Assembly (NCBI GenBank): GCA_050952625.1
Contig: JBMNLH010000001.1
Location: 1,184,001-1,248,000, forward strand
DNA from: Bacillota bacterium
GTDB taxonomy: Bacteria > Bacillota > Ch66 > Ch109
Length of the DNA stretch: 64,000 nt
Direction: 5' to 3'
Part shown: positions 13,596-16,822 of the stretch, piece by piece
Numbering within the stretch: the first letter of the stretch is position 1
Layout: each line of letters begins with the position of its first letter
Translations under genes and position numbers: made by a program
Notes under the pieces: model-generated
What the model was told of the DNA's origin: nothing
The model's database searches: none
The model's input: only the letters and a program-made list of their open reading frames with translations

Positions 13596-14567
13596 TTAAA
13601 TCCATAGCTTTTTAGTAAAAAACCAAAGCATACCGGCAGAAATAATTCCACTGCCTAAAACTATTACCCAAAATGAGCTTACATGCTCAGGCAACGGCAA
13701 GGGTACGTTCATCCCAAACAGCCCGGTGATAAAAGTTAACGGCATCATAATCGTCGAAATAATTGTTAAAACCCGAATTACTTCATTAGTTCGACCTGAA
13801 AGCACCGAAAAGAAGGAGTCCAGGGCGTTATTGACTAGATCTCTATAGGTATCTGTAGCATCAATTATTCGTTCCAAGTGATCAGCCAGATCCATATAAA
13901 AAGGTTGATTCTCTGGTCGAACTGTAAAGGAATAGCGCCCTCCCACACTGGCGAATATCCGTCTTTGCGGCAAAACGACCTTGCGCAACAGCAAGGTTGT
14001 CCGTTTTAAGGACAAAATTTCATCAGTAATTTCCTGCGCCGGATTTATATATAATTCATCCTCCAATTCATCAATCCGTTCCCCAATTCGATCAATAATG
14101 GGAAAGTAGTCATCAACGATCGCGTCGACAATTGAGTAAATCAGATAGTCCGGTCCCCGATCCATTAAAGCATGGTGCTTTAAGCACTGCTTGACCACTT
14201 TTCCAACGGCAGCTAATGGACGTTTATGAATAGTGACAATATAATTCTGTCCTAGAAAAACATCTAATTCGGAAGTAGTGATCTCGTCTTCGCCTTCTTC
14301 ATCATAATGAAGGGCGTGAAAGACGAAAAAAAAGTATCCGTCATATTTATCCACCTTGGCCCGAGGACTCAACTGAAGACAGTCTTCAATGGCCAGGGGG
14401 TGAAAATCGAAGACCTTTCCGATATAATTTAGCTCTAAATCATCACAATTAAAGACATCTACCCAGAGTAAGTTTTCTGGAGAGGCGAGGTATTCGTCTT
14501 TGCGGCCTAAATCTACATCGGGGTAGATTTTTCTTTCTGAATCCTCGTAGAAATATGTCTTGATCAT
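13596..14567 (-). CDS. corA: CorA family Mg2+/Co2+ transporter
   Basis: FHPLAIED, MPLTFITGLFGMN signature, two C-terminal TM helices. Confidence 0.93.
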   Translation of the reverse strand: MIKTYFYEDSERKIYPDVDLGRKDEYLASPENLLWVDVFNCDDLELNYIGKVFDFHPLAIEDCLQLSPRAKVDKYDGYFFFVFHALHYDEEGEDEITTSELDVFLGQNYIVTIHKRPLAAVGKVVKQCLKHHALMDRGPDYLIYSIVDAIVDDYFPIIDRIGERIDELEDELYINPAQEITDEILSLKRTTLLLRKVVLPQRRIFASVGGRYSFTVRPENQPFYMDLADHLERIIDATDTYRDLVNNALDSFFSVLSGRTNEVIRVLTIISTIMMPLTFITGLFGMNVPLPLPEHVSSFWVIVLGSGIISAGMLWFFTKKLWI

Positions 14568-14584
14568 AAAAATTTGCGCCCCCC

Positions 14585-14686
14585 TTAGCGAGGGTTGGCA
14601 ACTCGGTGGTTAAAATCAACCCTCCACAGGCTTTCTGTTAAAGTTTCAAAGCTATGTTGTCCTTGATAATCGGGTATCGGATCGAT
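14585..14686 (-). CDS. Putative MgtL-like corA leader peptide (33 aa from ATC; in-frame GTG at 14695)
   Basis: SD AAAGGGGGTG precedes ATC-GAT-CCG-ATA-CCC-GAT (xDPIPD); its stop TAA abuts the corA SD. Confidence 0.5.
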   Translation of the reverse strand: MDPIPDYQGQHSFETLTESLWRVDFNHRVANPR

Positions 14687-14719
14687 TTCAACCACCCCCT
14701 TTACTAATGGTACGTTAGT

Positions 14720-14748
14720 ATTATAACACTATAATCTTCAACAACCAA
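14720..14748 (-). promoter_or_regulatory. SigA-like promoter for the corA leader
   Basis: TTGGTT-17 nt-TATAAT with extended -10 TG on the minus strand. Confidence 0.55.
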
Positions 14749-14839
14749 AGGACCTTTGGATTTATGTAAAAAAGGCAAGAATAGTTAGTAGGTTAGTTAA
14801 AAACTGCAATATATAACCTCAGAATAATAAGGAGTAATC

Positions 14840-16822
14840 ATGTTTAAGGTCTGTAAGTGGATCAGTCGAATCTTTATAATCTTTTTTCTTATAGGCATAC
14901 TCAATATTGTATTATTAAATATTCCTGGTTGTAGTTGGGGTGTTCTTCCGGCTCCACGACTTCCTTTTCCCGCCCAAATATTTGATGTAAATGGCCAGTT
15001 AATTGGTTCTATATATGAAGAGAATAGAGAAGAAGTAGCTTTGGAAGAAGTAGCCCCCTTCTTTCTGGAAGCAATTGTCGCCATTGAAGACTCTCGGTTT
15101 TACGAGCATAACGGCATCGACTTTCGGGCGGTGATAAGAGCTCTGTTAACTAATCTCAAAAAAGGACGGATAGTCGAAGGCGGAAGTACGATTACCCAGC
15201 AAACGGCCAAAAATCTCTACCTTACACCTGAACGAACTTGGAATCGAAAAATCAAAGAATTATATTATGCAATGCGATTAGAAGGTCAACTAACAAAACA
15301 GGAAATTTTGCAGCTTTATATCAACCAAATATATTTTGGCCATGGTGCTTATGGCGTGCAAATGGCGGCGAGAACTTTTTTTAATAAATCAGCCAACAAT
15401 CTCACAGCAGCAGAGTCGGCTCTGCTGGCTGGACTTACCCGCTCGCCGCGAAACTATTCACCTTTTCTCAATCTAGAGTCAGCCCGGGAGCGACGGAATG
15501 TGGTCCTTAATCGAATGGTGGAATTGGGCAAGTTATCAGCCAAAGAGGCTGAACAAATCAAAAAAGAACCGGTTCAGGTGGTCAATCAGGAACGGCCTTC
15601 CCCTAGGGCTGCGTATATAATTGATGAAATAAGAGAGTACATCATTACCAATTATCCTGATGGGGCATCGATGCTTGATAATGATGGACTGGCTATTTAT
15701 ACGACTATTGATTTACAAATGCAGGAGGCGGCTGAAAAAGCCTTTACTAACGGACTTGCTCATTTAGATAGCGAGTTAAACGGGGCCTTAGTTGCCATTG
15801 AGCCGATGACCGGACACATTAAAGCCATGTTAGGGGGGCGTAATTATCGTCAAAGCAAATTTAATCGGGCTTCCCAGGCAAAGCGCCAACCGGGTTCGGC
15901 TTTTAAACCTTTTGTCTATACCGCTGTTATTGATTGGGGTTATACTCCGGCCAGAATGGTCCAGTGTGAGCCAGTGGCTTACCCACAACCAGATGGGACC
16001 GTTTATGCACCAAAAGACTTTAGTGAACCGCTATATCACTACCGCGGCCTAACCTTGAAAGAAGCCCTGATGGTGTCTGATAACGTCATTGCCGTTCGCC
16101 TAAATCAAGAAATTGGTCCTTCAACTACAATAAAATATGCCGAACGGATGGGAATCCAAAGTGAACTGGGGCCCTATCTTTCTCTAGCCTTGGGTACCTC
16201 AGAGGTTACCCCTTTAGAAATGGCCGCTGCTTTTAGTCCATTGGCCAGTGGAGGTTACTACGCCGAACCCACTCTCATCCTGCGCATAATAAATCGCGCC
16301 GGCCAGGTTCTTGAACAAACCGAAACTAAGTCCCGAGCAGTTTTAGACGCGCGAACTGCCTATATCGTGACTGATATGCTGCAGGGTGTATTACAGCCAG
16401 GTGGGACCGCAGATCATCTCGCTCCTCTAGTCGGTCGACCAACTGCCGGCAAGACCGGCACAACCCAGGACCGCCGAGATGCCTGGTTTGTCGGCTATAC
16501 GCCAGAACTAGTAACTGCTGTCTATGTAGGGTATGATCAGCCGGATCGTCCAGTTGGGGTAGGGGGGAGAGTTGCTGGCCCTATTTGGGCTAACTTCACC
16601 CGGGAGGCCCTAAAAACAAAACCGGTCCGTTATTTTACCCGTCCCCCAGGCATAGTTATGTCCGAAATATGTGCTGACAGTGGTGCTAAAGCAACCTTTC
16701 ACTGTCCCCGGCGTCTTTCAGCCGCCTTTCGAGAGGGAACCGAACCGCTTATTGATTGTTCGATTCACCCTACTTTCGAAAACCAGACGGTACCCCTGCC
16801 AAACCTTGGTCTTTTCCCTTAG
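14840..16822 (+). CDS. Class A penicillin-binding protein (PBP1A family)
   Basis: Transglycosylase motifs EDSRF, GGSTITQQ, RKIKE; transpeptidase motifs SAFK, SDN, KTG. Confidence 0.95.
   Translation: MFKVCKWISRIFIIFFLIGILNIVLLNIPGCSWGVLPAPRLPFPAQIFDVNGQLIGSIYEENREEVALEEVAPFFLEAIVAIEDSRFYEHNGIDFRAVIRALLTNLKKGRIVEGGSTITQQTAKNLYLTPERTWNRKIKELYYAMRLEGQLTKQEILQLYINQIYFGHGAYGVQMAARTFFNKSANNLTAAESALLAGLTRSPRNYSPFLNLESARERRNVVLNRMVELGKLSAKEAEQIKKEPVQVVNQERPSPRAAYIIDEIREYIITNYPDGASMLDNDGLAIYTTIDLQMQEAAEKAFTNGLAHLDSELNGALVAIEPMTGHIKAMLGGRNYRQSKFNRASQAKRQPGSAFKPFVYTAVIDWGYTPARMVQCEPVAYPQPDGTVYAPKDFSEPLYHYRGLTLKEALMVSDNVIAVRLNQEIGPSTTIKYAERMGIQSELGPYLSLALGTSEVTPLEMAAAFSPLASGGYYAEPTLILRIINRAGQVLEQTETKSRAVLDARTAYIVTDMLQGVLQPGGTADHLAPLVGRPTAGKTGTTQDRRDAWFVGYTPELVTAVYVGYDQPDRPVGVGGRVAGPIWANFTREALKTKPVRYFTRPPGIVMSEICADSGAKATFHCPRRLSAAFREGTEPLIDCSIHPTFENQTVPLPNLGLFP

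Follow-up and report, generated by a model that had tools for sequence, protein, structure and literature searches.

The region analyzed here is a 64,000-nucleotide (nt) stretch from a Bacillota bacterium (GenBank assembly GCA_050952625.1, contig JBMNLH010000001.1, forward-strand positions 1,184,001 to 1,248,000), referred to below as the window, and the element in question is the 146-nt leader that precedes the magnesium channel gene corA on its minus strand. Comparison with related genomes indicates that this leader is very probably a conserved cis-regulatory element with an open reading frame (ORF) that is, or once was, translated. The features of the locus are listed below in the order in which they would be transcribed, with positions counted from the first letter of the window. 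Genomes and loci are cited by G and L numbers where they need to be told apart.

14748-14743, minus strand: TTGGTT, a weak -35 candidate and the sole one with 17-nt spacing.
14728-14720, minus strand: extended -10 element TGtTATAAT, read from the sequence and kept in G001, G002, G004, and G005.
14702-14693, minus strand: extended Shine-Dalgarno (SD) sequence of the leader, AAAGGGGGTG, read from the sequence; its 3' half forms the base of helix A:B.
14679..14696, minus strand: segment A, the 5' strand of helix A:B (P1), made up of the SD end, the spacer, the start codon, and codons 2 and 3.
14585..14686, minus strand: leader ORF, an open frame of 33 codons from ATC at 14686 to TAA.
14669..14683, minus strand: codons 2 to 6 (Asp-Pro-Ile-Pro-Asp), the conserved N-terminal motif and the proposed site of slow or abortive elongation.
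14617..14624, minus strand: segment C, GAGGGUUG, an anti-anti-SD resembling an SD, with D as a possible partner.
14605..14622, minus strand: segment B, the 3' strand of helix A:B (P1), with its upper part (14617-14622) common with C.
14590..14597, minus strand: segment D, CAACCCUC, an anti-SD that pairs with either C or the corA SD.
14585..14587, minus strand: TAA, the stop codon of the leader, located within the D:SD hairpin loop and abutting the corA SD.
14579..14584, minus strand: corA SD, GGGGGG, sequestered by D in the lowest-energy fold.
13596..14567, minus strand: corA, the putatively regulated gene, 323 amino acids, with its ATG at 14567 (Pfam CorA domain PF01544, E 9.6e-73).

An earlier, sequence-only reading of this DNA had described the promoter, the leader SD, the 33-codon ORF, and a TAA abutting the corA SD, and all of these lie where it placed them. 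BLAST matches to the leader begin at the -10 element. The promoter consensus scan listed no minus-strand promoter for the corA leader because the -35 element is weak. The ATC at 14686 sits 8 nt past the GGGGG/GGAGG core of the leader SD, and the same frame is open from an in-frame GTG at 14695, from which it would count 36 codons. The intrinsic terminator scan found none on the minus strand at the corA leader, and a terminator after the D:SD hairpin was rejected on this ground and on the ground that a U-run follows the hairpin only in G000 and G001.

The leader is predicted to fold strongly. Its minimum free energy (MFE) structure, at -48.7 kcal/mol, comprises helix A:B and a CCCUC:GGGGG hairpin, with a z score of -3.28 and none of 200 shuffles equally stable. 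Helix A:B consists of 18 contiguous pairs (14696-14679 with 14622-14605); the 13 base pairs (bp) that had been proposed for it are present, within a helix that is longer than had been thought. The 8 pairs of C:D (14624-14617 with 14597-14590) are perfect, and the D:SD pairing, in which CCCUC at 14594-14590 holds the G-run of the corA SD, belongs to the MFE structure, both in agreement with the earlier proposal. When the window duplexes were compared to 300 dinucleotide shuffles, p was 0.003 for A:B and 0.033 for C:D. Because C shares six bases (14622-14617) with the 3' strand of A:B, the two helices are mutually exclusive beyond what topology alone would dictate. The exclusion had been recognized before but ascribed to the position of B in the loop of C:D, and it is now clear that C is itself part of the 3' strand of A:B. 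The six bases of the corA SD have a mean unpaired probability of 0.18 in the free RNA.

On balance, and with some reserve, we favor the reading that the corA leader is a ribosome-mediated translational attenuator for which Mg2+ is the signal. Ribosomes would load onto the leader while it is being transcribed, and slow or abortive elongation through the acidic, proline-containing N terminus, of the sort that published work on MgtL and MgtQ has demonstrated at low Mg2+, would leave a ribosome on segment A. With A occupied, the upper part of A:B would be blocked, C would capture D, and the corA SD would be free, so that corA could be translated. Smooth elongation would instead carry the ribosome through C, B, and D to the stop codon, erasing C:D, whereupon A:B and D:SD would fold and close the leader and corA alike. 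That C:D has to be erased may be the reason why the frame stays open through D despite an unconstrained peptide. In the window's class, the near-cognate ATC or ATA start would hold translation of the leader down and might move the set point of the switch.

The window's GTDB class is represented by seven species genomes. A covariance model built from the class leaders (R1) finds the leader in six of them, and BLAST found it in 4 of the 61 relatives searched, the window's genome included. G003 has no leader, and its CorA, 81% identical, is encoded after a short unstructured untranslated region (UTR). At that locus (L006, positions 1440-1505), from a genus of the same family in which the leader has been lost altogether, a TGcTATAAT promoter, a UTR of ~30 nt, and a TTG start for corA can be seen. 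In all six class members with the leader, the frame runs uninterrupted from the SD as far as the anti-SD hairpin, for 35, 36, or 39 codons, and stops occur in 11 of the 12 instances of the other two frames. The indels are of a kind that would spare the frame: -3 in G004, +9 in G005 relative to its congener G002, and single-base indels in G006 that cancel out. After dinucleotide shuffling, the variable middle remains open in 0.25 to 0.61 of trials, and for the lineages other than that of discovery, frame openness and indel constraint give a rough p of 0.002 to 0.006 by our own arithmetic. In G004, on contig C171 (L008/L012), the leader is intact and corA falls into two matches with one in-frame TGA, which reflects a frameshift or else a misassembly of this metagenome-assembled genome. 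Pattern scans running from the SD to Pro-5 added no lineages: four of eight loci on genome contigs were true, all of them known class members, the other four being coding matches in unrelated genes, and none of 11 on metagenome contigs was true.

Beyond the class, CorA orthologues with 49 to 65% identity were found in 33 of 301 sampled genomes of the phylum, the window's class included. We surveyed the 300 nt upstream of corA at 22 loci from other families, leaving out L066 (38% identity). At 16 of the 22, there was an ORF with a Met-Asp/Glu start, a proline among the four residues that follow, and an end that either lies 50 nt or less from corA or falls inside it; shuffled upstream regions gave 1.12 ± 0.93 such ORFs, with a maximum of 4 in 100 rounds. 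The six loci that have none are L054; L059 and L061, at both of which only an M-box, the textbook Mg2+ control of Bacillota, is present; and L063 to L065. The class-only model R1 detects 6 of the 16 nonclass leaders (E ≤ 0.0031). A second covariance model, R2, built from these six together with the class leaders, detects L057 and L058, two loci absent from its seed, with values near 1e-6, and members outside its training set score 1.2e-7 to 1.5e-5. For the window leader, a training sequence of both models, the scores are 146.3 bits (R1) and 126.9 bits (R2). We define the family by an extended SD, a start codon followed by Asp/Glu-Pro-x-Pro, a helix in which a CCACC-type strand further downstream pairs with the SD/start region, and, ahead of corA or mgtE, an anti-SD hairpin; the window leader falls within this family. 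In each of the 30 nonclass leaders measured, the ORF either stops no more than 50 nt from the main start or runs over it. L047 (2467-2524) has a miniature leader in which a 10-codon ORF with a TTG start (MDPGQAGHGR) ends in a stop that overlaps the corA SD and little structure is predicted.

These relatives bear directly on where the leader ORF starts. In every one of the 33 nonclass leaders, an ATG, GTG, or TTG aligns with the ATC at 14686, behind the same extended SD (11 ATG, 8 GTG, and 1 TTG among the first 20, and ATG or GTG in all of the 13 others). The class itself has ATC five times and ATA once, in one genus, so that its start codon is noncanonical in six of six leaders; the window leader has no ATG, GTG, or TTG at a proper distance from the SD. 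Two nearby candidates were rejected, namely GTG at 14695, which lies inside the SD with zero spacing and was scored as out of frame with the ATG of the relatives, and TTG at 14691, which is out of frame and not conserved. Homology therefore supports the ATC at 14686 as the start position, which had been chosen beforehand on spacing. In Staphylococcus aureus, conserved AUA and AUU starts after extended SDs work with ~10 to 30% of the efficiency of AUG (PMC13009471), and AUC goes unmentioned in the accessible part of that paper.

Read from the ATC, the window peptide is xDPIPDYQ...NPR. Position 2 is Asp or Glu in 26 of 26 leaders and position 5 is Pro in 23 of 26, with variants of the motif in relatives such as DPDP, EPIP, and DPGP, while the GGTGGT core of the leader SD is kept in 21 of the 26 leaders tabulated. 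Among the 16 leaders that begin Met-Asp/Glu-Pro-x-Pro (M-D/E-P-x-P), three to four different bases occur at the third position of codons 2, 3, and 5, and codon 2 never changes at its first two; the invariance of the first two bases of the proline codons follows from how this set was selected. The alignment of related upstream regions that had been suggested as a check thus shows an xDPxP ORF that is conserved, with in-frame indels and changes at wobble positions. A fixed N terminus followed by a freely varying body is, as far as sequence comparison can tell, the pattern of regulatory leader peptides, unlike that of functional small proteins. The isoleucine codon at position 4 (window 14676-14678) is ATA in 13 of the 16 M-D/E-P-x-P leaders and ATC in none; this preference may reflect pairing or a slowly decoded codon.

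It is also conceivable that the RNA acts by itself, with the long A:B helix sensing Mg2+, another ion, temperature, a protein, or a small RNA, and with the ORF an untranslated relic of an ancestor that started with ATG. Such a relic would fit the replacement of the canonical start by ATC or ATA in all six class genomes, the burial of the start region in an 18-bp helix, the coincidence of the conserved residues near the 3' end of the ORF with pairing segments, and the free evolution of the peptide body. It sits poorly with a frame that is open in six of six members over class-level divergence, with indels that are multiples of three or compensated, and with the codon for Pro-5, which lies outside A:B and varies only at its third base (C, T, or G) between invariant flanks. 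The 56-nt interior of A:B is unconserved, unlike a ligand pocket, the starts of the relatives are canonical in 33 of 33, and S. aureus does initiate at near-cognate codons behind extended SDs, as reported in the accessible part of the paper cited above (PMC13009471). We therefore regard an RNA-only switch as unlikely.

The competing helices were also compared among relatives. The best duplex between the defined segments was compared to 300 dinucleotide shuffles in each of 21 leaders (the 10-codon form at L047 was omitted here and from the counts of SD-opening cost), and p was ≤0.05 for A:B in 16 leaders and for C:D in 10, with ~1 of 21 expected by chance in each case. Pair counts for P1 on model-based alignments gave 87.1% of cells paired with 12 leaders (34 to 55% for slid partners; both-side changes in 4/21; covariation, 0.159) and 83.6% with 15 leaders (30 to 50% for slid partners; both-side changes in 8/20; covariation, 0.248). 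The latter covariation compares to 0.161 ± 0.014 in shuffles, none of 500 reaching the observed value; G000, G001, and G004 were omitted from alignment A5 to avoid antisense hits. RNAalifold recovers A:B and D:SD from the six class leaders. D:SD aligns poorly between subgroups, and its support comes from folds of the individual sequences. In G006, the change from ATC to ATA is compensated within A:B, and C:D is a perfect 12-bp hairpin with bases altered on both strands. The expectation of conserved A:B and C:D helices with compensatory changes, raised with the original prediction, is thus borne out.

A ribosome held at the leader start was imitated by blocking positions -3 to +27 of the leader. 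Under this block, 14 of 21 leaders needed ≥1.5 kcal/mol less to open the main SD, and in the window the cost for the corA SD went from 9.7 down to 4.3 kcal/mol. Equilibrium folding therefore backs the proposed switch, but only partly. Since the equilibrium effect is partial, the switch, if real, would have to be kinetic, and C and D are transcribed before the SD.

The association with magnesium extends beyond corA. Searching 151 genomes of the phylum with R2 returned 14 hits, comprising nine known corA leaders, four new leaders, and one false hit. The four new leaders (MDSGP, MDPLP, MDAGP, and MDPIP), from four further families, precede genes with MgtE_N and CBS domains, and in three of the four, the MgtE domain as well. 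The false hit, L076, is the start of a ribosomal-protein gene, taken as that of L32 by eye from the N-terminal peptide. In another class, examined around one of the mgtE leaders, R2 hits occurred in 16 of 34 genomes, a false hit (L087) included. Of 15 new loci in that class, 13 lie before MgtE-type genes, one lies before MgtE-like fragments, and one is false; 10 of the 11 tested with Pfam were MgtE-type, L087 being the eleventh, and three were judged by having the same N terminus. The mgtE leaders of that class encode peptides beginning MDPDP, MDPGP, MDSDP, MDADP, or MDPYP. At L086 (1500-2150), the MDPYP leader looks intact, and the MgtE-like frames behind it are broken into fragments of 107 and 105 amino acids (by eye), which are possibly a decaying mgtE or a sequencing error. 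L087 (E 6e-5; 1500-1602) has no leader ORF and consists of a hairpin, GGGTGGTTGAAAGG...CCAACCACC, before a superoxide dismutase gene, so the lower A:B helix alone can trigger R2. Altogether, 44 of 46 inspected R2 hits or class members precede corA or mgtE-type genes, the exceptions being the false hits L076 and L087.

Many of these leaders share their mRNA with an M-box. An M-box lies directly upstream of the leader at mgtE loci L071, L074, and L075, at corA loci L060 and L062, and at 10 of the 15 new loci of that other class (L077-L079, L081-L085, L089, and L091), and the M-box model RF00380 scores 107 to 153 bits at the loci of relatives. The order on one mRNA is then the M-box aptamer and terminator, the M-D-x-x-P leader with its SD switch, and the Mg2+ channel gene. 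Going by this arrangement, the tandem appears to be a two-stage control, of which we found no description in the literature. The window is simpler, as had been noted from its letters: RF00380 has no match at E ≤ 10 in 14400-14900, and none at the 44-bit threshold, and it was found in none of the seven class genomes, whereas the positive controls Bacillus subtilis and Lactococcus lactis were detected. The MgtE domain PF01769 was likewise not found in the window's genome, which is 95.9% complete. With neither MgtE nor an M-box, the CorA behind the leader appears to be the genome's only recognized Mg2+ channel, and the leader the only recognized control of such a kind. A permissive Rfam scan of 4,227 families (inclusion of the enterobacterial mgtA and corA leader models being unchecked) gave only MIR5269 (E 1.6) and CRISPR-DR22 (E 2.1), both rejected as chance-level matches. 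Taken together, the occurrence of one leader type before two unrelated families of Mg2+ channels and its sharing of mRNAs with the M-box support a tie between the leader and magnesium.

This context also bears on the possibility that the leader is translated and switches corA in response to a different signal, such as the supply of prolyl-tRNA or proline, elongation factor P (EF-P) activity, polyamines, or general translation capacity. The conserved residues are indeed Pro and Asp/Glu, and the proline codons of mgtL and mgtP have been linked to the sensing of proline or tRNA-Pro and to EF-P in the accessible parts of two reports (PMC11552253; PMC8092293). However, 44 of 46 inspected hits or members would hardly be expected before corA or mgtE-type genes if the signal lay elsewhere, the stacking of leaders behind the Mg2+-sensing M-box indicates Mg2+ homeostasis, and consecutive prolines, the classical EF-P-dependent motif, are absent; we consider such a signal improbable. 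Least likely of all is plain translational coupling, in which the finishing ribosome unwinds D:SD at the stop and passes the site to corA with no stall switch: it fits a leader stop in the D:SD loop 1 nt from the SD, stops within 50 nt of or overlapping the main start in 30 of 30 measured nonclass leaders, and a frame that must remain open through D, but it leaves the conserved C segment, the covariation of C with D, and the acidic/proline N terminus unexplained, and, should translation abort at low Mg2+, coupling would cut the synthesis of the importer at the very moment when the M-box of the tandem loci raises transcription.

As for expression, seven metatranscriptome runs contain small shares of the stretch, and one of the four inspected spans the start of corA and its leader. 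The RNA-library contig concerned (212 nt, depth 3.6) carries variants of G001, from the same genus, and covers 14478-14690, that is, the first 89 nt of corA and the leader up to the fifth base before the ATC; the remaining parts were uncovered, from which nothing follows. DNA may be present in such a library and the contig reveals no transcript ends, so it gives a weak hint that leader and corA are on one transcript.

Several observations weigh against the attenuator that we favor. Leader translation, stalling, the Mg2+ response, and initiation at ATC are all steps that we infer. The ATC or ATA start in six of six class leaders means that translation of the leader there may be very weak or lost, and translation is argued for only by the N terminus and the openness of the frame. 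The peptide body is not conserved, with one synonymous and four nonsynonymous differences between G000 and G001 (read by eye), and RNA pairing alone accounts for the conserved residues near the 3' end of the ORF. The search model behind the mgtE leaders itself includes the start and the Asp-Pro codons, so that the likeness of their peptides is partly built in. With regard to the RNA, C:D was significant in only 10 of the 21 leaders; the covariation counts come from alignments fitted to the structure of the model and are hence biased towards that structure; and a plain MAFFT alignment of 18 diverse leaders, too poor for the purpose, gave no consensus structure with RNAalifold. Blocking the leader start left the opening cost of the main SD unchanged in 6 of 21 leaders and raised it in 1, the unpaired probability of the main SD rose by more than 0.3 in only 5 of 22, and that of the window SD stayed at 0.18 to 0.19 despite the block. 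Finally, expression is supported by a single low-depth RNA-library contig.

Upstream of the leader promoter, and overlapping its weak -35 element, lies a perfect 15-bp palindrome, CCAAAGGnCCTTTGG (window 14745-14759). It is situated in the divergent intergenic region between the corA leader and a PBP1A gene, was picked up by the scan as terminator-like on the plus strand, is identical in G001, and is partly retained in G002 and G005. It could be a candidate transcription-factor operator.

Leader-peptide control by Mg2+ has, to our knowledge, been worked out only in enterobacteria (MgtL, CorL, MgtP/M, and MgtQ). The sequence-only reading knew of no description of the present arrangement for Bacillota corA, and our literature search likewise found no leader peptide described before corA or mgtE in Bacillota or Clostridia, supplements and subscription-only papers lying outside its reach. 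From the genomes compared, the switch family is apparently both widespread and undescribed. We tentatively put forward a broader proposal, which we hold with considerable doubt, that the M-D/E-P-x-P leaders are undescribed, phylum-wide ribosome-based Mg2+ sensors of Gram-positive-type anaerobes, either convergent with MgtL or anciently related to it. They would act on the translation of CorA and MgtE, often in series behind an M-box; in the window's class, the leader would be the only control of known type over the cell's sole Mg2+ channel of known type, and the fidelity of AUC/AUA initiation may itself have come to form part of the sensor. If this is true, sensing of Mg2+ through ribosome performance would be a general bacterial strategy that reaches beyond enterobacteria, and one tandem mRNA would read Mg2+ twice, by RNA folding and by ribosome performance. 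The tandems of M-box and leader may offer a natural two-stage gate with directly testable logic, the window's class a naturally occurring test case for near-cognate starts in a regulatory ORF, and the family a compact, portable part (~140 nt) for Mg2+- or translation-responsive control.

In its layout, the leader is akin to the classical attenuators of ermC and cat, in which pairings 1:2 and 3:4 form the off state and 2:3 the on state, and an early-stalled leader ribosome frees the downstream SD. The four-segment design is similar; the difference is that those systems involve a ribosome-bound antibiotic and a resistance gene, whereas the setting in the window is Mg2+ transport and no drug is implied. 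The M-box controls the same gene families (mgtE and corA) in the same phylum and, in many relatives, is on the same mRNAs as the leader; unlike the leader, it is a Mg2+-binding aptamer with a terminator and no ORF, and it is absent from the window and from all seven class genomes.

The enterobacterial systems are described here from the accessible parts of the papers cited. MgtL has EPDP after its Met, and its translation aborts within the first six residues, more so at low Mg2+, which switches mgtA on (10.1101/2021.02.02.429294; PMC11552253). In both MgtL and the window leader, a short ORF precedes the gene of a Mg2+ importer, acidic and proline-rich residues follow the first codon (EPDP in MgtL, DPIP in the window when read from the ATC at 14686), the ORF overlaps mutually exclusive stem-loops, and poor elongation is proposed to turn the transporter on. 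The two show no sequence or Rfam relationship in the scan of 4,227 families described above. The output of MgtL is Rho-dependent transcription termination, whereas the conserved output element of the window is an SD-sequestering hairpin; the window leader also lacks a conserved terminator, has an ORF twice as long and, in its class, a noncanonical start, and belongs to a different phylum. The earlier comparison to MgtL therefore holds for the acidic/proline start that both share, but it should be widened to include mgtQ-mgtB and corL-corA.

In Salmonella, mgtQ has 8 codons with Asp2 and Glu5, and occupation of region 1 by a ribosome lets helix 2:3 form, which captures the anti-ribosome-binding site (anti-RBS) of mgtB (PMC8092293). 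In that system the acidic codons are needed, and ribosomal protein bL31 counteracts their effect. An upstream ORF (uORF) thus lies over region 1 of the exclusive helices 1:2, 2:3, and 3:RBS, and the window leader has this same arrangement. As far as the source goes, mgtQ differs in lying between two genes of an operon and in having no sequence similarity to the window leader, the ORF of which runs across all of the switch segments to a stop beside the main SD. The corL uORF of Escherichia coli and Salmonella corA starts with UUG and acts through Rho, and the strength of its start codon sets corA expression (PMC11552253). Both corL and the window leader are weak-start uORFs in a structured corA leader; in the former, corA expression is lower the more the uORF is translated, and the leader is responsive to Mg2+ inside the cell (PMC11552253; PMC6429828). 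In the parts of those papers available, corL differs in its Rho-dependent termination and in an N terminus with a single proline, no similarity to the window leader was detected, and the published corA motif is confined to Gammaproteobacteria (PMC6429828). In mycobacteria, according to the accessible part of a further report, an M-box is followed by a conserved uORF with an N-terminal proline and an SD/anti-SD/anti-anti-SD logic (PMC12810186). The order of an M-box and then a small ORF with a conserved N-terminal Pro is that of the tandem leaders; the differences are that the peptide is reported to be specific to mycobacteria, that it lies before pe/ppe-mgtC operons, and that the M-box itself masks the SD of the uORF (PMC12810186). 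Set beside these systems, the sequence comparisons support the view that the corA leader of the window is a leader-peptide switch of the MgtL/MgtQ kind, with a putative translational output, in a different phylum, and with a noncanonical start in its class.

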